From a virus (Duplodnaviria; Heunggongvirae; Uroviricota; Caudoviricetes): a stretch of DNA of 13,126 nucleotides. The translations under genes were made by a program, and so were the position numbers. Shown here piece by piece: positions 1,783 to 13,126 of this stretch (positions are counted from its first letter, which is position 1; each line of letters begins with the position of its first letter). The notes below the pieces were generated by a model. It was not told the origin of the DNA and did not search any database. It saw only the letters and a list, made by a program, of their open reading frames with translations. The stretch covers positions 1 to 13,126 of IMG/VR virus record IMGVR_UViG_2718217868_000002. One strand, given 5' to 3'.

Positions 1783-1809
1783 AAAAAATAAGCCCGTGTA
1801 AGGGAGATT
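1783..1809. other. P2-type attachment core (attL junction) AAAAAATAAGCCCGTGTAAGGGAGATT
   Basis: 27-bp sequence matching my recollection of the phage P2 att core, lying about 80 bp downstream of the int stop codon, where P2 attP is expected. Flanked by a 7-bp inverted repeat GGCTTAT (1771-1777) / ATAAGCC (1788-1794). Confidence 0.6.
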
Positions 1810-1888
1810 TAGGGTGTCACCAGTAGGGGCTTTCAACGGTACAATGCGGGTTTGAGCGGCATAAATTACCACTGAAAGCCCTTAAACG

Positions 1889-2902
1889 TTACTCTACTGT
1901 GGACACTGTGTGGACACTCTCGGCCTCAGTACCACCTCTTAGCGGATTAAGAGAAATGGCGTCCTGAAGGTACTCTGGCGCAAAGTGAGCGTAAACCATA
2001 GTTTGCTCAATCCGCGTGTGACCTAGTATCCGTTGTAGCGTGATAATACTTCCTCCATTAATCATGAAATGAGTGGCAAAGCTGTGCCTTAGTGCATGTG
2101 TGGCTTGCCCCATTGGCAAATCCGGTTTTATTGCTTTCATTGTTCGTCTGAAGCGAGGGTAATCAGCATCAGGGAATAAAAAACCTCGTTTGTTATCCGC
2201 GATCATTTTGGCAACAGCCTCTGAGATCGGGACGGTGCGTGGTTTGTTTGTTTTCGTTTTAACAAACGTGACGCGGTTATGGATGATATTTTCTGCTTTC
2301 AAACGAGCTGCTTCTCCCCAACGTGCTCCAGTACTCAGGCAAAGAATCGCAATCTTTTTATTGTCGCCGTCAAGAGCAGCAAGCAGTAAGGCAATTTCTT
2401 CCTGCGTGAGATAGCCTGTGTCTGGTTTTTCCTCCTTAAGCCTTTTTGTCCCTCTGATAGGGTGCTCACCAAAGAATAACTCCGCTTCAATCAGGGCTGT
2501 AAACATGCCGCTAATACATGTTAAATCACGATTGATACTCGAAGGTTTAATACCCTGACTTCTTCGGGTGGCGCAGTACTGGCTGATAAGCGATTTCGTA
2601 ATTTGAAATGCGCATGGGTCATTCGTTATTTTTGTGAAGATTTCAATTTTTCCAAGATTAGATTTCCCATGCTCTTCGTGTTTACCCTTTAAATCCCACC
2701 AGATCTGTGTCAGCTCCGACAGACGTCGCTTGTCTGTTGGTTTTGATAGCCATTCTTTATTGTGGTGGTTGTACAACGTGTATTTCTCGAAAGCGACAGC
2801 TTCGCTTTTCTTATCAAACTTCCTACGGATGCGTTTTCCATTACGTCCAGTAGGGCGGATGTCCACTTCATATCGACCATCATCGAGTTTTTTGATTGCC
2901 AT
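1889..2902 (-). CDS. int: P2-type tyrosine integrase (337 aa)
   Basis: ATG at 2900-2902 (minus) with GGAGGG RBS upstream; TAA at 1889-1891. C-terminal catalytic region with HALRHSFAT...LGH...Y (R-H-R-Y tyrosine recombinase signature). Length and N-terminus MAIKKLDDGRYEVDIRP match phage P2 Int as I recall it. Confidence 0.95.
   Translation of the reverse strand: MAIKKLDDGRYEVDIRPTGRNGKRIRRKFDKKSEAVAFEKYTLYNHHNKEWLSKPTDKRRLSELTQIWWDLKGKHEEHGKSNLGKIEIFTKITNDPCAFQITKSLISQYCATRRSQGIKPSSINRDLTCISGMFTALIEAELFFGEHPIRGTKRLKEEKPDTGYLTQEEIALLLAALDGDNKKIAILCLSTGARWGEAARLKAENIIHNRVTFVKTKTNKPRTVPISEAVAKMIADNKRGFLFPDADYPRFRRTMKAIKPDLPMGQATHALRHSFATHFMINGGSIITLQRILGHTRIEQTMVYAHFAPEYLQDAISLNPLRGGTEAESVHTVSTVE
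1898..1918. repeat. Tandem direct repeat TGTGGACACT x2 (1898-1907 and 1909-1918); candidate arm-type Int binding sites (P' arm)
   Basis: Two 10-bp identical copies one helical turn apart, overlapping the 3' end of int. Assignment as Int arm sites is from recollection of P2 arm-site consensus (TGTGGACA-like), not verified. Confidence 0.4.
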
Positions 2903-3017
2903 CAGAAAACCCTCCGAGTGGTGTGTTTTTTGGCGACTACTAATCGCTTTTTTCGTGGTGGCTGAAATTTAGCCACCAATAGTAGGCACTTGTGATGAAT
3001 ATATTCACGATGAATTG

Positions 3018-3317
3018 TTAACCAGTCTTTTGACCGGAGTGGGGCGACGTTGTTTCGTTTTGCCCAAAGTGTGCGAGAGCGGGCGCAATTTGCCCGGACT
3101 CAGGAGCGATCTGATTGGTCATGAACCATAAAGTGTATTTGGTGAATTGTGGGGTCTGCAGGATGTTCATCATGACATCTGTTGGAGGTGTTGAACGACC
3201 ACTTTCATAGTAACTCAGCGTGCCATACGGAACCCCTGTTAAATCAGCAAGTTGTTGTCTGCTCAAATACTCTGATTTTCGCATTAAGACTATCTTCTCG
3301 CTTATCGTGTTTGACAT
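3018..3317 (-). CDS. C: Immunity repressor C (99 aa, P2 C-like, helix-turn-helix)
   Basis: 99-aa ORF divergent from cox; HTH-like segment LSRQQLADLTGVPYGTLSYYESG. Position (between int and cox) and size match P2 C. Confidence 0.9.
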   Translation of the reverse strand: MSNTISEKIVLMRKSEYLSRQQLADLTGVPYGTLSYYESGRSTPPTDVMMNILQTPQFTKYTLWFMTNQIAPESGQIAPALAHFGQNETTSPHSGQKTG

Positions 3318-3352
3318 GGTGTTTAGATCTCAATAGTATTTAGTTTAGATGT
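3311..3352 (+). promoter_or_regulatory. Early promoter Pe with C-operator direct repeats
   Basis: -35 TTGACA (3311-3316), 17-bp spacer, -10 TAGTAT (3334-3339). Two 10-bp direct repeats GTTTAGATCT (3321-3330) and GTTTAGATGT (3343-3352), 22 bp centre to centre, flank the -10. This is the P2-type arrangement of C operator half-sites, from memory of P2 biology. Confidence 0.55.
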
Positions 3353-3380
3353 AGATTGTTTAGTGCTTGGATGTGGGCAC

Positions 3381-3408
3381 TAAAAGGCATTATAAGGCAT
3401 TAAACGCA
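3381..3408. promoter_or_regulatory. Three phased cox-box-like repeats (TAAAAGGCA, TATAAGGCA, TTAAACGCA) overlapping a candidate Pc -10 (TATAAT on minus strand, 3389-3394)
   Basis: Tandem 9-bp repeats with about 10-bp periodicity upstream of cox; resemble the Cox recognition consensus TTAAA(G/C)NCA as I recall it. The Pc -35 is not convincingly identified. Confidence 0.45.
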
Positions 3409-3431
3409 ATTCATGAGGGCTGGAGGACGAC

Positions 3432-3707
3432 ATGAGCAAGCAAGTAACACTCATGACTGATGCGATTCCTTATCAGGAGTTCGCAAAACTAATAGGAAAA
3501 TCGACAGGAGCGGTTCGTCGGATGATCGATAAAGGAAAGCTGCCTGTAATTGATATGACCGATCCACAATCAGCTTCAGGTCGTGCAGGTGAATATTGGG
3601 TATACCTTCCGGCATGGAATAACGGACTAAAACTGGCTTATGAAAGCCGCCCTAAAGAGATTCGTGACGGCTGGTTGATGTGGTTAGGTCTCGGTGAACC
3701 ACGTTAA
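3432..3707 (+). CDS. cox: Cox (excisionase / Pc repressor, 91 aa)
   Basis: ATG at 3432 preceded by GGAGGA (3422-3427). 91 aa, first gene of the rightward early operon, as in P2. Confidence 0.9.
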   Translation: MSKQVTLMTDAIPYQEFAKLIGKSTGAVRRMIDKGKLPVIDMTDPQSASGRAGEYWVYLPAWNNGLKLAYESRPKEIRDGWLMWLGLGEPR

Positions 3708-3717
3708 GGAGAACCGT

Positions 3718-3888
3718 ATGAATGAGCCTCGTTGTATTGCTCAGTTACTGCGTAACGAAAGCCCCAGGGCGATTGACTTCAACATCACCCACGGTAAGGG
3801 GCGTAAGGGAATCATTATCCGCACCAAAAAACAGAGTCCGTTAAAAAAGGCTCTGACCTTTCTGAAAAGCCGGAGGGTATGGAAATGA
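3718..3888 (+). CDS. Small early protein, P2 orf78-like (56 aa)
   Basis: ATG at 3718 with AAGGAG RBS (3706-3711). Basic small protein. The track ORF start at 3694 overlaps the cox 3' end and lacks an RBS. Stop overlaps the B start (ATGA). Confidence 0.6.
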   Translation: MNEPRCIAQLLRNESPRAIDFNITHGKGRKGIIIRTKKQSPLKKALTFLKSRRVWK

Positions 3889-4385
3889 CAGTGATGACGC
3901 TCAATCTCGTTGAAAAACAGCCAGCAACTATGCGCCGGATAATTGGTAAGCATCTGGCCGTCCCTCGCTGGCAGGAGACATGCGATTATTATAATCAGAT
4001 GATGGAACGTGAACGGCTAACGGTTTGCTTCCATGCGCAGTTAAAACAGCGTCACGCAACGATGCGTTTTGAAGAAATGAACGACGTCGAACGTGAACGA
4101 CTGGTATGTGCAATTGATGAATTGCGTGGGGCATTCTCAAAACGCCGTCAGGTTGGCGCAAGTGAGTATGCATATATTAGTTTTTTAACAGTCAGTCAGC
4201 GTCGCACTTTATTTATGCACGCACGACTGACAGAAAAAGAATTTAACCAGCCATACTGGCGAATTAATGAAGAATCATGTTACTGGCGTGATGCTTTATT
4301 CCGTGCATTACGTGAATTATTCAGTCTGTTTGAGTATGCACCGACAATTCTGACGTCGGTAAAACCAGAGCAATATCTGCATTAA
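3885..4385 (+). CDS. B: Replication protein B (166 aa; P2 B-like, helicase-loader function)
   Basis: ATG at 3885 (7 nt after GGAGGG). Size and position match P2 gene B. Confidence 0.85.
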   Translation: MTVMTLNLVEKQPATMRRIIGKHLAVPRWQETCDYYNQMMERERLTVCFHAQLKQRHATMRFEEMNDVERERLVCAIDELRGAFSKRRQVGASEYAYISFLTVSQRRTLFMHARLTEKEFNQPYWRINEESCYWRDALFRALRELFSLFEYAPTILTSVKPEQYLH

Positions 4386-4448
4386 GTAATTAACCAGAGT
4401 TTTTAACGCACTTAATTGTGCGGGGCTTCTTTTTGCCTGGAGAAAGTC

Positions 4449-4673
4449 ATGCATACAGTTTCTGAAAATCAGTGCGGTATATACGCATTACTGCTGCAAC
4501 AGGCCAGAACCGAAGCACAGGCCGACGCTGCGACGCGCTTTTCTTCTCATCTTGACGCCATGATTCGCCACATCACAAAGGCGGAGTTATCCCGCGTGGA
4601 GATAGTCGAGCTGCTCAGTCAGGAGTCGGAAAAATTTCACAATATCGGATTGTCTCGTGGGGAGGTGCTTTGA
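4449..4673 (+). CDS. Hypothetical early protein (P2 orf80-like)
   Basis: ATG at 4449 after GGAGAAAG; stop TGA at 4671-4673 overlaps the next start. Start choice uncertain (track ORF begins at 4416). Confidence 0.5.
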
Positions 4674-4975
4674 TGTCCTGTTCTCATTCAGTTGTATTAC
4701 TGAATAACGCCTTAAAAATCGCCGTTATGGAAAATGGCGATTTGTCTCTTATTCAACTTGGTCTTGATAAAGAAAAGCGCGACATAACTGAATCTGTTAT
4801 CGCGATTTATCAGAGCGAATTAAACCTCCTGTCTGATGTGATCAATTTACTTGTGAAACGCGCTGTATTTCACAAGCAAATTTCCTCAGTGGATGAACTG
4901 ACAAAATTAACGACAGAACTCGCCAGCTATTGCGCTGATGAATTTAAGAAACTGAACGACAAAAGGAACTGGTAA
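4673..4975 (+). CDS. Hypothetical early protein (P2 orf81-like)
   Basis: ATG at 4673 (TGATG overlap with upstream stop), GGAGG RBS at 4661-4665; 100 aa. Confidence 0.6.
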   Translation: MSCSHSVVLLNNALKIAVMENGDLSLIQLGLDKEKRDITESVIAIYQSELNLLSDVINLLVKRAVFHKQISSVDELTKLTTELASYCADEFKKLNDKRNW

Positions 4976-5199
4976 TGCCGGACAACGTAGATTTCATTCA
5001 GGAACAACAGGCTGAATTACTGGAGCGCCAGATTAACGCGGCAAGGGTAAAACATTGCGGTGCTTCTGCGCTGGTTTGCGAAGAGTGTGACGCGCCAATA
5101 CCTGCTGCCCGTCGTGCGGCTTATCCGTCAGCCACGCGTTGTGTTTCCTGTCAGTCAGTCTTTGAAGCAAAAAACAAACATTACCGGAGAACGGCATGA
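4975..5199 (+). CDS. TraR/DksA-family C4 zinc-finger protein (P2 orf82-like, 74 aa)
   Basis: CEEC-x17-CVSC (Cys35/38 and Cys56/59) is the CxxC-x17-CxxC spacing of zf-DksA/TraR proteins. ATG at 4975 with TAATG overlap. Confidence 0.7.
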   Translation: MPDNVDFIQEQQAELLERQINAARVKHCGASALVCEECDAPIPAARRAAYPSATRCVSCQSVFEAKNKHYRRTA

Positions 5200-5471
5200 G
5201 TATTCGTATTGAAATTGGCGAACGTTATGTCGTTACCAGTGACAGCTTCCAGTTTATTCTCCACGAGAAAAAGAGAGCGGAAAGCGGTAAAAACGCCGGT
5301 CAGGAATGGCTGGCGGTGGTTGGTTATTACCCGAAATTAAGCCAGCTCGTTTCCGGCCTGATGCATCACGATATTCTGACCGGAAGCGCAAAGTCTTTTG
5401 CTGATTTAAACGCGCAGGTTGAGCAACTCAGCAAGCGTTGTTCAGAGGCTTTTGGCTCATATGGCCGTTAA
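5196..5471 (+). CDS. Hypothetical early protein (P2 orf83-like, 91 aa)
   Basis: ATG at 5196 (ATGA overlap with upstream gene), GGAGA RBS. Confidence 0.6.
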   Translation: MSIRIEIGERYVVTSDSFQFILHEKKRAESGKNAGQEWLAVVGYYPKLSQLVSGLMHHDILTGSAKSFADLNAQVEQLSKRCSEAFGSYGR

Positions 5472-7773
5472 AGCCTCCGGGCGTTTTGTCCCTCCGTCAG
5501 CATTTGCCGCAGGCACCGGTAAGACGTTTACCGGTGCTTATGCATGGAACGCGCCACGCGAGGCCGTCGGGCGCGAAAGACCCCTTACACGTGACGAGAT
5601 GCGTCAGGTGCAAGGTGTTTTATCCACGATTAACCGCCTGCCTTACTTTTTGCGTTCGCTGTTTACTTCACGCTATGACTACATCCGGCGCAATAAAAGC
5701 CCGGTGCACGGGTTTTATTTCCTCACATCCACTTTTCAGCGTCGTTTATGGCCGCGCATTGAGCGCGTGAATCAGCGCCATGAAATGAACACCGACGCGT
5801 CGTTACTGTTTCTGGCAGAGCGTGACCACTATGCGCGCCTGCCGGGAATGAATGACAAGGAGCTGAAAAAATTTGCCGCCCGTATCTCATCGCAGCTTTT
5901 CATGATGTATGAGGAACTCTGCGATGCCTGGGTGGATGCCCATGGCGAAAAAGAATCGCTGTTTACGGATGAGGCGCAGGCTCACCTGTATGGTCATGTT
6001 GCTGGCGCTGCACGTGCTTTCAATATTTCCCCGCTCTACTGGAAAAAATACCGTAAAGGACAGATGACCACGAGGCAGGCATATTCTGCCATTGCCCGCC
6101 TGTTTAACGATGAGTGGTGGACTCATCAGCTTAAAGGCCAGCGTATGCGCTGGCATGAGGCGTTACTGATTGCTGTCGGGGAGGTCAATAAAGACCGTTC
6201 TCCTTATGCCAGTAAACATGCCATTCGTGATGTGCGTGCACGCCGCCAGGCAAATCTGGAATTTCTTAAATCGTGTGACCTTGAAAACAGGGAAACCGGC
6301 GAGCGCATCGACCTTATCAGTAAGGTGATGGGCAGTATTTCTAATCCTGAAATTCGCCGGATGGAGCTGATGAACACCATTGCCGGTATTGAGCGTTACG
6401 CCGCAGCAGAGGGTGATGTGGGGATGTTTATCACGCTGACCGCGCCGTCAAAGTATCACCCGACACGTCAGGTCGGAAAAGGCGAAAGTAAAACCGTCCA
6501 GCTAAATCACGGCTGGAACGATGAGGCATTTAATCCAAAGGATGCGCAGCGTTATCTCTGCCATATCTGGAGCCTGATGCGCACGGCATTCAAGGATAAT
6601 GATTTACAGGTCTACGGTTTGCGTGTCGTCGAGCCACACCACGACGGAACGCCGCACTGGCATATGATGCTTTTTTGTAATCCACGCCAGCGTAACCAGA
6701 TTATTGAAATCATGCGTCGCTATGCGCTCAAAGAGGATGGCGACGAAAGAGGAGCCGCGCGAAACCGTTTTCAGGCAAAACACCTTAACCGGGGCGGTGC
6801 TGCGGGATATATCGCGAAATACATCTCAAAAAACATCGACGGCTATGCACTGGATGGTCAGCTCGATAATGATACCGGTAGGCCGCTGAAAGACACAGCT
6901 GCGGCTGTTACCGCATGGGCGTCAACGTGGCGCATTCCGCAATTTAAAACGGTTGGTCTGCCGACAATGGGGGCTTACCGTGAACTACGCAAATTGCCTC
7001 GCGGCGTCAGCATTGCTGATGAGTTTGACGAGCGCGTCGAGGCTGCACGCGCCGCCGCAGACAGTGGTGATTTTGCGTTGTATATCAGCGCGCAGGGTGG
7101 GGCAAATGTCCCGCGCGATTGTCAGACTGTCAGGGTCGCCCGTAGCCCGTCGGATGACGTTAACGAGTATGAGGAAGAAGTCGAGAGAGTGGTCGGCATT
7201 TACGCGCCGCATCTCGGCGCGCGTCATATTCATATCACCAGAACGACGGACTGGCGCATTGTTCCGAAAGTGCCGGTCTTTGAGCCTTTGACTTTAAAAA
7301 GCGGCATCGCCGCGCCTCGGAGTCCTGTCAATAACTGTGGAAAGCCTGCCAGCAGTGATACTTCGTTACCGGCTCCCACACCTTCTGAACATGCCGCAGC
7401 AGTGCTTAATCTGGTAGATGACGGTGTTATCGAATGGAGTGACCCGGAGGTTGTGAGGGCGCTCAGGGATGCATTAAAACACGGCCTGAAAACACCAAAT
7501 CGTCAGCAAAGAAACGGAAGCCCGTTAAAACTACATGAAATAGCACCGTCGGCCAGACTGACCAGGTCGGAACGAATGCAAATCACCCGTATCCGCGTTG
7601 ACCTTGTTCAGAATGGTATCAGGCCTCAGCGATGGGAGCTTGAGGCGTTGGTTCGAGGAGCGAGAGTAAATTATGGTGATATGTCATTCAAATTTCCAAT
7701 TGATGATCGATTTTATGATGATGTTAACTCTTTGAATTTATGGAGTATTGAGTCTCGTGTGAACTTCACATAA
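5461..7773 (+). CDS. A: Replication initiation protein A (rolling-circle initiator, P2 A-like)
   Basis: About 770 aa from ATG 5461 (MAVKASGRFVPP...); the track ORF begins at a TTG at 5419. Large GC-rich gene in the position of P2 A. The last ~35 codons (about 7665-7773) switch abruptly to AT-rich composition. Confidence 0.85.
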   Translation: MAVKASGRFVPPSAFAAGTGKTFTGAYAWNAPREAVGRERPLTRDEMRQVQGVLSTINRLPYFLRSLFTSRYDYIRRNKSPVHGFYFLTSTFQRRLWPRIERVNQRHEMNTDASLLFLAERDHYARLPGMNDKELKKFAARISSQLFMMYEELCDAWVDAHGEKESLFTDEAQAHLYGHVAGAARAFNISPLYWKKYRKGQMTTRQAYSAIARLFNDEWWTHQLKGQRMRWHEALLIAVGEVNKDRSPYASKHAIRDVRARRQANLEFLKSCDLENRETGERIDLISKVMGSISNPEIRRMELMNTIAGIERYAAAEGDVGMFITLTAPSKYHPTRQVGKGESKTVQLNHGWNDEAFNPKDAQRYLCHIWSLMRTAFKDNDLQVYGLRVVEPHHDGTPHWHMMLFCNPRQRNQIIEIMRRYALKEDGDERGAARNRFQAKHLNRGGAAGYIAKYISKNIDGYALDGQLDNDTGRPLKDTAAAVTAWASTWRIPQFKTVGLPTMGAYRELRKLPRGVSIADEFDERVEAARAAADSGDFALYISAQGGANVPRDCQTVRVARSPSDDVNEYEEEVERVVGIYAPHLGARHIHITRTTDWRIVPKVPVFEPLTLKSGIAAPRSPVNNCGKPASSDTSLPAPTPSEHAAAVLNLVDDGVIEWSDPEVVRALRDALKHGLKTPNRQQRNGSPLKLHEIAPSARLTRSERMQITRIRVDLVQNGIRPQRWELEALVRGARVNYGDMSFKFPIDDRFYDDVNSLNLWSIESRVNFT

Positions 7774-7776
7774 TAT
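7748..7776 (+). promoter_or_regulatory. Candidate sigma70 promoter for the cargo operon
   Basis: -35-like TTGAGT (7748-7753), 17-bp spacer, -10-like TAATAT (7771-7776), about 50 nt upstream of the SIR2 start. Weak matches; by-eye only. Confidence 0.3.
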
Positions 7777-7827
7777 GGGGCCGTTGTAGGTGTTTGAATA
7801 ATCAGACTTCAATTCAAAGGGATAATT

Positions 7828-9075
7828 ATGGTTATTTATCAAGGTGGTAAGATAATATCTGAAGATGATTTTTATTCTCATCTTTATTCGTTATGTCAGT
7901 TGGATAATGTAGGGGTTCTTTTAGGCGCGGGAGCATCGGTCGGATGTGGCGGCCAAACTATGAAGCAGGTATGGCAGTTTTTTAAATATGAACATCCTGA
8001 TCTATTGAATTTGTTACTAGAAAAATACTTATTGGTTGACAAAACTGAATCTGAACAAGATATAGTTAATGTTGAGCTTCTAATTGATGAAGTAACTAAA
8101 TTCTTGTCTGTGGCCAAAACAAGACGTAATGAAGACGAACAAAAAGAAATTAGTTTAATATTAAGTGCTTTGTATAAACAAGTAACAAAGGCTGCATTGT
8201 TAACTGGAGAAGAGTTTGGTTGTAAAAATCAAGGGAAGAAAAAACAGTTTAAGTCTCATAAAGAATTAATTTCAAAGTTGATTTCAAATAGGCAGCCGGG
8301 ACAATCGGCTCCGGCACTTTTTACTACCAACTATGATTTGGCATTAGAGTGGGCAGCTGAAGATTTAGGAATTCAGCTATTTAATGGTTTTTCAGGATTG
8401 CATACAAGACAATTTTATCCTCAAAATTTTGATTTGGCATTTAGAAATGTCAATGCAAAAGGGGAGGCTAGATTTGGTCATTATCACGCTTATCTATATA
8501 AATTGCATGGCTCTCTTACATGGTATCAGGATGATTTTTTAATAGTTAATGAGATAAGTGCATCTCAGGCATATGATAATTACATTAAAAATATTATTAA
8601 TGGTGACGGTTTTTACTATGGTCAACATTTAATTTATCCGGGGGCTAATAAATATAGCCATACAATTGGTTTTGTTTACGGTGAAATGTTTAGACGTTTT
8701 GGCGAGTTTTTGTCAAAACCTCAAACCGCTTTGTTTATTAATGGGTTTGGGTTTGGTGATTATCATATAAACAGAATTGTTTTTGGTGCTTTGTTAAATC
8801 CGTCATTTCATGTTGTTATTTATTACCCTGATCTGGAGAATGCTTTAGATAAAGTTAGTAGAGGCGTTGCTTCTGAAGGTGAAAAGGCAATTGATGCTTT
8901 AAAAAATATGCAATTCAATCAAGTGACTATCGTGGGTGGGGGGGCAGATGCTTACTTTGATAGTTTTGTGAAACATCTTCCTTATCCGGTGTTGTTCCCA
9001 AGAGAAAATACTGTTGATGACTTGGTTGAAGCTATTTCTAAATTGTCTAAAGGGGAAGGGAATGTCGCATTTTAA
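7828..9075 (+). CDS. SIR2-family (sirtuin-like / DHS-like NAD-binding) protein, predicted NAD+ hydrolase effector (415 aa)
   Basis: ATG at 7828 with AAGGGA RBS. Glycine-rich loop GAGASVGCGG (aa 33-42, nt 7924-7953). TTNYD motif (aa 166-170, nt 8323-8337). HG(S) motif in KLHGSL (His227, nt 8506-8508). Order and spacing match defence-associated SIR2 domains (ThsA/SIR2_2-like). Gene is about one-third GC against ~55-60% in flanking phage genes (hand count on sample 60-mers). Confidence 0.8.
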   Translation: MVIYQGGKIISEDDFYSHLYSLCQLDNVGVLLGAGASVGCGGQTMKQVWQFFKYEHPDLLNLLLEKYLLVDKTESEQDIVNVELLIDEVTKFLSVAKTRRNEDEQKEISLILSALYKQVTKAALLTGEEFGCKNQGKKKQFKSHKELISKLISNRQPGQSAPALFTTNYDLALEWAAEDLGIQLFNGFSGLHTRQFYPQNFDLAFRNVNAKGEARFGHYHAYLYKLHGSLTWYQDDFLIVNEISASQAYDNYIKNIINGDGFYYGQHLIYPGANKYSHTIGFVYGEMFRRFGEFLSKPQTALFINGFGFGDYHINRIVFGALLNPSFHVVIYYPDLENALDKVSRGVASEGEKAIDALKNMQFNQVTIVGGGADAYFDSFVKHLPYPVLFPRENTVDDLVEAISKLSKGEGNVAF

Positions 9076-10882
9076 ACTATCTGAATTATCTGCTATTGGG
9101 TATGTCGTTGGTCTGGAGGGCGAAAAAATAAGGATAAATCTTCATGAAGGATTGCAAGGTAGGCTCGCCTCTCATAGGGATGGTGTTAGTTCTGTTACTC
9201 AGCCTGGAGATTTGATCGGTTTTGATGCCGGAAATATTCTGGTTGTGGCTCGAGTTACAGATATGGCATTTGTCGAGGCTGATAAAGCACATAAGGCAAA
9301 AATAGGTACATCAGATATAGCAGATATGCCGTTAAGGCAAATAATAGCCTATGCAATAGGTTTTATTAGACGAGATATAGATGGATGTGTGTTTGTTTCG
9401 GAAGACTGGAGGTTACCTGCTCTGGGAGCATCCGCTGTCCCGTTAACATCTGATTTTTTAAATATCGTATATAGTATTGATAAAAATGATCTGGATAAAG
9501 CAATTGAGTTAGAAATAGATTCGAGGACTAAATCAGTTAAAATTTTAGCTAGCATTGATAAATTACTAACCAGGCATATGGCTGTTTTGGGCAGTACTGG
9601 ATATGGTAAATCTAATTTTAATGCTTTACTTACACGCCGCATTTCAGAACAGTACCCTAATGCAAGAATAGTAATTTTTGATATTAATGGCGAGTATTCT
9701 CAGGCTTTTGAAGGTGTTGCTAATGTTAAACATACTATTTTAGGTGAGTTACCAAAAGGAGAGTTTCCAAAACCACCTCTACAGAAAGGAGATATATTTT
9801 CTGAGAATGAACATTACTACTATAGAAAAATACCTTATCAAGCATTGGGATTTGCTGGGTTGATAAAATTACTACGCCCTAGTGATAAGACACAATTACC
9901 TGCATTAAGAAATGCGCTTAATGCTATAAATAGTGTTCATTTTTCCGATGATTCATTCTTTCTTAAGGATGAAGTAGGGGGCGTATTTAATATTTTTGAT
10001 GATTGTAGAGATGAAGGGCAAGAGCTTTTATCTGCGTGGTTGAGTTTCTTAAGAAGAGGGATGCTGTGTAAGGCAAATAAATGGCCGCCGTTTAAAAGTA
10101 TTGCTAACTTGGTTGCGGAGTTTGGTTGCGTGGCGGCGGATTCGCGAAAAGCTGGATCTAGTAAACGAGATGCTTTTAGCTATGGTAATGTTCTGCCATT
10201 GATTAAGATAATTCAACAGTTATCAGAGGATTCTAGATTCAAGTATGTTGTTGATTTAAATGGAGGTGGTGAATTATTAAGTGATGGCAAACATTGGGAA
10301 TTAGCTATGAGACAGGAAGTTGATTATTTCTTTGGTAAAGAAAAGGGAGAGGAGAATGACTGGAATATTCATATTGTTAATTTTAAGCATCTTTCACAAG
10401 ATCATGCTCCAATGCTGTTAAGTGCATTATTAGAAATGTTTGCTGAAGTTCTCTTTCTTAGGGGGCAAAACAAAGCTTTTCCAACCGTGTTACTTCTTGA
10501 AGAGGCGCACCACTATTTAAGAGATCCTTATTCTGAAGTTGATGCACAAATTAAAGCTTATGAAAGACTTGCTAAAGAAGGGCGTAAATTTAAATGTTCA
10601 CTTATTGTGAGCACACAACGACCATCAGAGCTTTCATCAACAGTATTAGCAATGTGTGCAAATTGGTTTTCGTTGCGCCTGACAAATGAGCGTGATTTGC
10701 AGACTTTACGGTATGCGATGGAAAGTGGAAATGAGTTAATGATTCGGCAGATTTCTGGGCTTCCAAGAGGAGATGCAATAGCGTTTGGTGCTGCTTTTAA
10801 TATACCCGTAAGAATTTCAATTCACCCTGCTGTACCCGGTCCGAGATCGTCTGACGCAAGTTATTCTCAAGAATGGCGATAA
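9062..10882 (+). CDS. HerA-like (FtsK/HerA superfamily) P-loop ATPase, 606 aa
   Basis: ATG at 9062 preceded by AGGGGAAGGGA; start lies 14 nt inside the upstream gene (translational coupling). Walker A GSTGYGKS (aa 177-184, nt 9590-9613). Walker B-like VLLLEEAHH (aa 476-484, nt 10487-10513). TQRP motif (aa 518-521, nt 10613-10624), characteristic of HerA/VirB4-type ATPases. N-terminal ~170 aa is consistent with a HAS-barrel. AT-rich like its partner. Confidence 0.8.
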   Translation: MSHFKLSELSAIGYVVGLEGEKIRINLHEGLQGRLASHRDGVSSVTQPGDLIGFDAGNILVVARVTDMAFVEADKAHKAKIGTSDIADMPLRQIIAYAIGFIRRDIDGCVFVSEDWRLPALGASAVPLTSDFLNIVYSIDKNDLDKAIELEIDSRTKSVKILASIDKLLTRHMAVLGSTGYGKSNFNALLTRRISEQYPNARIVIFDINGEYSQAFEGVANVKHTILGELPKGEFPKPPLQKGDIFSENEHYYYRKIPYQALGFAGLIKLLRPSDKTQLPALRNALNAINSVHFSDDSFFLKDEVGGVFNIFDDCRDEGQELLSAWLSFLRRGMLCKANKWPPFKSIANLVAEFGCVAADSRKAGSSKRDAFSYGNVLPLIKIIQQLSEDSRFKYVVDLNGGGELLSDGKHWELAMRQEVDYFFGKEKGEENDWNIHIVNFKHLSQDHAPMLLSALLEMFAEVLFLRGQNKAFPTVLLLEEAHHYLRDPYSEVDAQIKAYERLAKEGRKFKCSLIVSTQRPSELSSTVLAMCANWFSLRLTNERDLQTLRYAMESGNELMIRQISGLPRGDAIAFGAAFNIPVRISIHPAVPGPRSSDASYSQEWR

Positions 10883-11036
10883 TCTTGTGGGAGAATGTAA
10901 TAGGATAACGATAAGTGCATCTATCTGCATTAATTCGAATAAGGTTGAGAGGAGTTCAAAAACAAATTTAGACCGGCATTAGAGTGATTTAGATAGACAT
11001 ATGCAACTGCATTAAAACCGCCCCATGAAGCGGGCG

Positions 11037-11055: not shown

Positions 11056-11196
11056 TGCGCGCTGGCGGTGGTGCTGATTTTATTTTTTCAGCGTCTGAGC
11101 GCGTCGTGATGGCGTTTAGATTGTTAGCCGGGGCGTTGGTGTGTCTGCGGGCTGTTTTGTGCGGTGGTGAGCGTGTGAGGGCGTGATGGCGGGGTG

Positions 11197-12636: not shown

Positions 12637-12852
12637 ATGGCAATGCCGCGCAAACTCAAGTTAATGAACGTCTTTCTGAACGGCTACAGCTATCAGGGCG
12701 TTGCAAAGTCCGTCACGCTGCCAAAACTGACCCGTAAGCTCGAAAACTATCGCGGTGCGGGGATGAACGGCAGCGCACCGGTAGACCTCGGCCTTGATGA
12801 CGATGCTCTGTCAATGGAGTGGTCGCTCGGTGGATTCCCGGATTCGGTTATA
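12637..12852 (+). pseudogene. FII: Truncated tail tube gene FII (N-terminal 72 codons)
   Basis: ATG at 12637 after AAGGAG. N-terminus MAMPRKLKLMNVFLNGYSYQGVAKSVTLPKL... recognised as P2 FII. The reading frame breaks after ...GGFPDSVI (about 12852) and then runs to an early stop at 12898-12900. Confidence 0.6.
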
Positions 12853-12853
12853 T

Positions 12854-13126
12854 GCCACGAAAGCACAGGCCATGCGCGCCGCTCAGGCGAAGTGGGATAA
12901 ACTGCAACGGGGCGTTGCGGAGTTCTCCATCAGCCTGGCTACTGGTCGGGCAGATATTTACACGGAAACACCGGTCAAAGTGTCTGGCTTTAAGCGCGTC
13001 ATAGACGAGCAGGACTGGACAATCACTAAGGTGACACACTTTCTGAATAATAGTGGCTTCACGACGTCCTTAGAACTTGAGGTAAGGCTTTCTGATGTGG
13101 AGTACGAAACAGAAGATGATGAGTGA
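12854..13126 (+). pseudogene. D: C-terminal fragment of tail protein D (~90 codons), fused out of frame to FII'
   Basis: Second frame reads ...ATKAQAMRAAQAKWDKLQRGVAEFSISLATGRADIYTETPVKV...SDVEYETEDDE with stop at 13124-13126. Recognised as the C-terminus of P2 gpD (the K-12 yegZ-like remnant). The N-terminal part of the track ORF (12794..) is an out-of-frame read of FII. Confidence 0.55.

Follow-up and report, generated by a model that had tools for sequence, protein, structure and literature searches.

Organization of the C-cox region

In the window, that is, the whole stretch of 13,126 nt that was analysed, two divergent genes, C and cox, lie 114 nt apart, in agreement with the ~110-bp intergenic region that the same pair flanks in the switch of phage P2. 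C encodes a 99-residue HTH protein that matches the structures of P2 C over its full length (PDB 2L49/2XCJ), and cox encodes a 91-residue winged-HTH protein with a likewise full-length match to the structure of P2 Cox (PDB 4LHF). The sequence between them holds the hexamers of two promoters, Pe and Pc, together with repeats that correspond to the binding sites of both proteins (Table 1). The start codon of C (3317-3315) overlaps the -35 hexamer of Pe, and the C leader therefore crosses the whole Pe/operator region. The int gene is intact, and so are both attachment sites, attL and attR, and the att-side Cox-binding region. Known RNA families and tRNAs were not found in the window.

Table 1. 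Positions of the switch elements, the attachment region and the cargo genes in the window
Feature	Position	Strand	Remarks
attL core	1783-1809	+	identical to P2 24356-24382
att-side Cox-binding region	1826-1899	+	identical to P2 24399-24472
int	1889-2902	-	second gene of the Pc operon; intact, 337 aa; seven nucleotide differences from P2
C	3018-3317	-	immunity repressor, 99 aa; 0 nucleotide differences from P2
Pe -35, TTGACA	3311-3316	+	P2 25884-25889, annotated minus_35_signal
O1, C-repressor half-site GTTTAGAT	3321-3328	+	P2 25894-25901, "O1 repressor binding site"
Pe -10, TAGTAT	3334-3339	+	P2 25907-25912
O2, C-repressor half-site GTTTAGAT	3343-3350	+	P2 25916-25923, "O2 repressor binding site"
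Degenerate third half-site copy, GTTTAGTG	3358-3365	+	6/8 vs GTTTAGAT; 15 nt past O2
Perfect 8-bp inverted repeat, TTTAGTGC / GCACTAAA	3359-3384		10-nt loop; between the inferred Pe and Pc starts
cox box 1, TAAAAGGCA	3381-3389	+	1 mismatch to TTAAA(G/C)NC(A/C)
Pc -10, TATAAT (plus strand ATTATA)	3389-3394	-	P2 25962-25967, annotated minus_10_signal
cox box 2, TATAAGGCA	3391-3399	+	2 mismatches to TTAAA(G/C)NC(A/C)
cox box 3, TTAAACGCA	3400-3408	+	0 mismatches to TTAAA(G/C)NC(A/C)
Pc -35, ATGAAT	3409-3414	-	14 nt from the -10; annotated, P2 25982-25987
cox Shine-Dalgarno, GGAGGA	3422-3427	+	four bases upstream of the cox ATG
cox	3432-3707	+	Pc repressor and excision directionality factor, 91 aa; 0 nucleotide differences from P2
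Candidate sigma-70 promoter, TTGAGT-17-TAATAT	7748-7776		weak, 8/12; straddles the A stop, ~45 nt upstream of the SIR2 ATG
SIR2	7828-9075	same direction as A	top PADLOC match, E = 3e-188
HerA	~9062-10882	same direction as A	top PADLOC match, E = 1e-270

Promoters and C operators

A consensus scan of positions 2900-3800 returned one sigma-70-like match, in which TTGACA and TAGTAT are separated by a 17-nt spacer (3317-3333) and together agree with the consensus at 10/12 positions. This is the promoter that a reading of the sequence alone (in the following, the sequence-only reading) had proposed, and both direct reading of the letters and the annotated positions of Pe in P2 agree with it. Pc was not found by the same scan and has no recognizable -35 element, the annotated one being a poor hexamer in any register; it has been described as the weaker promoter of the P2 pair (PMC1904263, PMC2995052).

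Around the -10 hexamer of Pe, two direct repeats, GTTTAGATCT (3321-3330) and GTTTAGATGT (3343-3352), are spaced by 22 bp from start to start, as had been reported. They had been taken as near-identical 10-bp units: the first 8 bp of each are indeed the published C half-site, GTTTAGAT, whereas bases 9-10 (CT and GT, respectively) match only partly. The two half-sites are thus found 22 nt apart from centre to centre, spanning the Pe -10, in the configuration of which P2 C needs both 8-bp members (PMC1904263, PMC2995052); P2 loses both repression and binding when O1 reads ATCCGAGT instead of GTTTAGAT (PMC1904263). The footprint of P2 C comprises four protected patches and continues for ~12 nt past O2 (PMC1904263); the degenerate copy GTTTAGTG lies near this downstream stretch and may correspond to part of it. 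A further exact copy of GTTTAGAT at 11114-11121, between cos and gene Q, is probably a chance occurrence and was rejected as an additional half-site; the homologous P2 sequence differs there.

The 56-nt segment with the Pe -35, O1, -10 and O2 recurs as an isolated, exact copy in strain CM2. It was considered as a natural second operator and discarded in favour of an engineered construct built with the P2 operator: the copy is flanked by sequence resembling plasmid vector, polylinker and rrnB terminator, adjoins a gene for a 708-residue Dam-family methyltransferase and is present twice in that genome.

Cox boxes and converging transcripts

Cox recognizes boxes with the consensus TTAAA(G/C)NC(A/C), spaced 10-11 nt apart over the -10 and -35 of Pc (PMC3936717). 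Three same-strand boxes overlap the Pc -10 and its spacer here. The sequence-only reading had noticed them as three 9-bp repeats at a regular 10-bp phasing; the repeats and their overlap with the minus-strand TATAAT stand, but the third one begins at 3400, so that the spacing is 10 and then 9 bp. Further boxes appear only when 2-3 or more mismatches are allowed, some of them on the other strand. In the literature, each Cox target is credited with at least six boxes, compared with the three convincing ones of the present region, and the others must be degenerate or reverse-oriented. As the sequence is identical to that of P2 apart from one N position, the cox-box complement of P2 is also present here. 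Cox protects at least 70 nt, spreads toward Pe at high concentration and acts in addition as excision directionality factor (PMC3936717, PMC5009727).

In P2, transcription from Pe and Pc converges and the transcripts overlap by ~35 nt (PMC1904263, PMC2995052). The hexamers of both promoters occupy the annotated P2 positions in the window; judged from them, transcription would start near 3346 for Pe and near 3382 for Pc, giving an overlap of ~36 nt. Between these putative starts, the inverted repeat at 3359-3384, which is identical in P2, would come to lie at the extreme 5' end of the transcript made from Pc. As RNA, the hairpin has a folding energy of -11 kcal/mol and a z-score of -3.9 in a 34-nt context. 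It was nevertheless rejected as a significant leader structure: for the whole leaders, the z-scores are -0.8 for Pe (86 nt), which is nothing out of the ordinary, and a marginal -2.2 for Pc (65 nt). Two naturally variable sites, 3370 and 3376, fall into the loop of the hairpin. In the P2-switch literature searched, no description of this inverted repeat was found.

Identity with the phage P2 switch

When positions 3000-3720 were compared with phage records by megablast, phage P2 (AF063097 / NC_001895) matched over the full 721 nt with 99.7% identity. Several Peduovirus isolates reached 99.6-99.7%, and ten phage records covered at least 80% of the segment at 99% identity or more. P2 coordinates were converted to window coordinates by subtraction of 22573; on this scale, the curated Pe -35, O1, Pe -10, O2 and Pc -10 of P2 fall base for base onto the motifs of Table 1. 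An ungapped comparison revealed one difference in the 100 nt at 3311-3410 and two in the 114-nt intergenic region. The alignment to the P2 Pe-Pc region, which had been suggested as a check of the sequence-only reading, thus bears out its claim of an intact-looking P2-type immunity switch, and direct reading of positions 2800-3900 recovered every motif that it had listed, exactly where it had placed them.

On these grounds, the region is very probably the canonical lysis/lysogeny switch of phage P2, carried with P2's own immunity specificity by a defective prophage of E. coli H6; the specificity follows from the identity of its gene C to that of P2. Dissection of the Pe/Pc switch of P2 goes back to 1984, and the copy described here is essentially the reference sequence of this known region. 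Its elements presumably work in strain H6 as they do in P2, given the identity with the characterized sequence. The discovery value is accordingly low, and the practical use lies in the annotation of the 11.7-kb P2 remnant in E. coli H6.

Natural variation of the switch

Two intergenic positions distinguish the copy from P2: 3397 and 3422, each with G where P2 has A. The former falls on base seven of cox box 2, the N of the consensus, at about -15 of Pc; position 3422 changes the Shine-Dalgarno sequence of cox from AGAGGA in P2 to GGAGGA. The 151-nt switch was aligned for ten E. coli genomes, sampled at regular intervals from a match list of 405, and for P2. The P2 haplotype at 3397/3422 was present in four of the ten sampled genomes. 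Neither substitution was retained as a candidate mutation of the switch, since each allele is common among the sampled natural prophages and 3397 coincides with the degenerate N of the box. Across the ten sampled prophages and P2, no variation occurs in either O half-site, in the Pe -35 or the Pc -10, or at any specified cox-box position, and the window carries the majority base in every variable column of this alignment. The alignment thus gives no indication that an operator or promoter is damaged.

Among other strains, the prophages of JCKP02 and AF6 carry TGGTAT in place of TAGTAT at the Pe -10 (window 3335) and have thereby lost the A at position 2 of the hexamer. This base is highly conserved in sigma-70 promoters, and the variant is probably a Pe-down allele.

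Divergence from P2 is unevenly distributed along the shared early region: the immunity cassette at 2421-3781, comprising the 5' end of int, C, the switch and cox, has only three differences in 1361 nt, compared with ~2.2% (127/5893) in the rest. The low divergence of the cassette looks like the outcome of mosaic ancestry or of a conserved immunity module.

The P2 remnant and its genomic setting

The window is 100% identical to positions 1939991-1953116 of E. coli H6 (NZ_CP010170.1). The gene order in this strain is yegS, yegR, the element, ogrK and yegQ, which places the element at the yegR/yegQ attachment site. Positions 1783-7675 correspond to P2 24356-30248 with 97.8% identity and contain int, C, cox, orf78, B, orf80-83 and most of A. 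Past A, the order is a foreign 3.3-kb insert, then cos, Q and the 3' end of P (P2 1-1501), a FI'/FII' fragment (P2 18756-19072) and the 3' end of D (from P2 23677 on); ogr and the attR core lie beyond the window. P2 1502-18755 and 19073-23676 are deleted from the element, with junctions at window 12538/12539 and 12849-12854, respectively; the element has therefore lost every head and lysis gene and almost all of the tail genes, which agrees with the earlier description of the element as a remnant. From core to core, it measures 11,745 bp and retains int, C, cox, B, A/ori, cos, Q, ogr and both att cores. Its size is close to that of the satellite P4 (~11.6 kb).

A related P2 remnant is found in genomes of the E. 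coli B lineage (E. coli B, REL606, ATCC 11303 and strain C). Its FI/FII and D fragments are arranged differently, with two pieces over ~700 nt vs 411 nt in the present element.

SIR2+HerA cargo and its relation to the switch

The insert past gene A (7676-11007) encodes the defence pair SIR2 and HerA and replaces orf91, tin and old of P2 in the gpA-gpQ hotspot, a cos-adjacent site of cargo in P2-like phages that has already been described (PMC9122126). P2 homology breaks at 7675 inside the 3' end of A, which leaves A with a different, longer C-terminus. While old and tin of P2 are on the strand opposite to A, the two cargo genes of the H6 remnant run in the same direction as A. The same cargo is present in 24 of 5426 complete E. 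coli genomes at a coverage of at least 80%. The sequence-intact immunity module provides a useful context for the study of this system.

The sequence-only reading had extended the control by C to the expression context of the cargo. Mechanistically, this appears doubtful, since a defence system that is silenced in the lysogen could not protect the lysogen, and this part of the claim was not adopted. SIR2+HerA lies 4.4 kb downstream of Pe, and a terminator-like hairpin after gene B (4407-4422), which coincides with the annotated putative terminator of P2, is located between promoter and cargo. Between the stop codon of A (7773) and the start of SIR2 (7828), neither a terminator-like site nor a plus-strand promoter match of at least 9/12 was found; read-through from Pe after derepression is therefore conceivable. 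A weaker match that straddles the A stop codon (Table 1) may be the cargo's own promoter.

Proposed working of the switch

Taken together with the functions established in P2, the elements could operate in the following manner: Pe would drive rightward transcription into cox, orf78, B and onward to A, and Pc, with its opposite-strand TATAAT and poor -35, would drive leftward transcription into C and int. The two promoters would fire toward each other, with transcripts overlapping by ~35 nt if they start near 3346 and 3382. C dimers may bind cooperatively to the two GTTTAGAT half-sites, which flank the Pe -10 with a spacing of 22 nt, and a repressor bound across this hexamer would consequently shut off Pe. 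Conversely, Cox would oligomerize on the phased boxes over the Pc -10 and spacer and thus shut off the synthesis of C and Int; binding of Cox beside attL would, in addition, direct excision.

In the remnant, C expressed from a Pc relieved of Pe would be expected to silence cox, B and A, the latter with its nickase and ori, and to render the host immune to phages of P2 immunity. Because the H6 remnant encodes a sequence-intact immunity module, it is expected to be immune to such phages and to keep its remaining replication and excision genes silent. This expectation concerns strain H6.

Retention of the module and alternative readings

The switch might owe its intactness solely to the very recent gutting of the prophage; it would then be a passenger in a decaying element rather than a maintained module and would degenerate as the K-12 remnant at the same locus has. 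This reading is a tangible possibility, although the odds are somewhat against it. The full-length junction of the exact double deletion is confined to the sister genomes H5 and H6, for which reason the preservation may reflect recent deletion and not selection. Moreover, intact reading frames are kept by all remaining P2 genes and not by the switch alone, and hundreds of prophages carry an immunity region that is just as close to identical. What weighs against it is a smaller, independent remnant at the same site in GPEC1292, in which cox through U are lost while int, C and the whole switch are kept, and the immediate benefits that C brings, namely P2 immunity and the silencing of A and B. 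The C and Int proteins of GPEC1292 have the same accessions as those of H6. In that remnant, a fragment of a tail protein begins 3 nt past the switch match and is followed by D and ogrK. As a single case, GPEC1292 hints at a preferential retention of the left end of P2 remnants.

A more far-reaching reading is that selection keeps the int-C-operator module at yegR/yegQ as a domesticated immunity and silencing cassette, which anchors SIR2+HerA and retains a potential as mini-P2. We consider this unlikely. If it were true, C would keep the intact nickase A, ori, Cox and Int quiet; the element, which is of P4 size and has both att cores along with int, cox, A/ori, cos and ogr, could conceivably act as a mobilizable mini-P2 if repression were lifted while a P2-like helper is present.

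It is exceedingly improbable that the repeats arose by chance in AT-rich intergenic DNA and that the promoter-like hexamers are non-functional: although consensus scans are no evidence of function and individual 9-mers resembling a cox box are not enriched in the window (50 vs 44.6 expected), GTTTAGAT is present in three copies vs 0.46 expected (a number reached in 0/200 shuffles), a same-strand triplet of boxes with 9-11 bp phasing and at most three mismatches in total occurs once in the window and arose in one of 300 first-order Markov simulations of the whole 13-kb window, and the sequence is that of P2 operators and promoters characterized by mutation, EMSA, footprinting and primer extension.

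Comparison with known switches

The canonical P2 switch and the present copy have the same gene order, promoters, O1/O2 sequence and 22-nt spacing, cox boxes, and C and Cox proteins; they differ in the element that carries them, a defective 11.7-kb remnant here and a viable 33.6-kb phage in the case of P2. WPhi and P2 Hy dis share the divergent C and cox genes, the convergent Pe and Pc and the direct-repeat half-sites bound by a pair of C dimers. Their repeats depart from those of P2 in sequence, length and spacing, the last being 34 nt for WPhi and 2.5 turns for Hy dis; the half-sites of Hy dis span the -35 whereas those of P2 span the -10, and WPhi Cox recognizes 12-nt repeats instead of cox boxes. 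A heteroimmune switch of the WPhi, P2 Hy dis or 186 type, with another repressor specificity, has a vanishingly small probability: P2-like phages do share this architecture across many immunity classes (PMC3448106), but C is identical to P2 C, the half-sites are those of P2 at 22 nt, a spacing that neither WPhi (34 nt) nor Hy dis (2.5 turns) shares, and the sole diverged phage match to positions 3000-3720 has a query coverage of 58% and an identity of 88%.

Nor does the region resemble the CI/Apl switch of coliphage 186 in its components, the repressor being identical to P2 C and the repeats being O1/O2 and cox boxes of P2. In 186, the lytic and lysogenic promoters, pR and pL, are likewise placed face to face; 186 has an establishment function, CII, and is SOS-inducible through Tum, while P2 is non-inducible. 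Apl of 186 is reported to be, like Cox, a small excisionase and repressor that acts on direct repeats one helical turn apart, located both between the promoters and at att (PMC7498355). The 186-type repressor, CI, is only functionally analogous to P2 C (PMC3448106).

The CI/Cro switch of lambda likewise relies on two mutually antagonistic repressors for a bistable choice. Lambda uses back-to-back promoters with shared palindromic operators, and P2 uses converging promoters with direct-repeat operators; in contrast to the lambda switch, P2 Cox doubles as excision directionality factor. Within the regulatory circuit, Cox has been described as the functional equivalent of Cro (PMC3936717).
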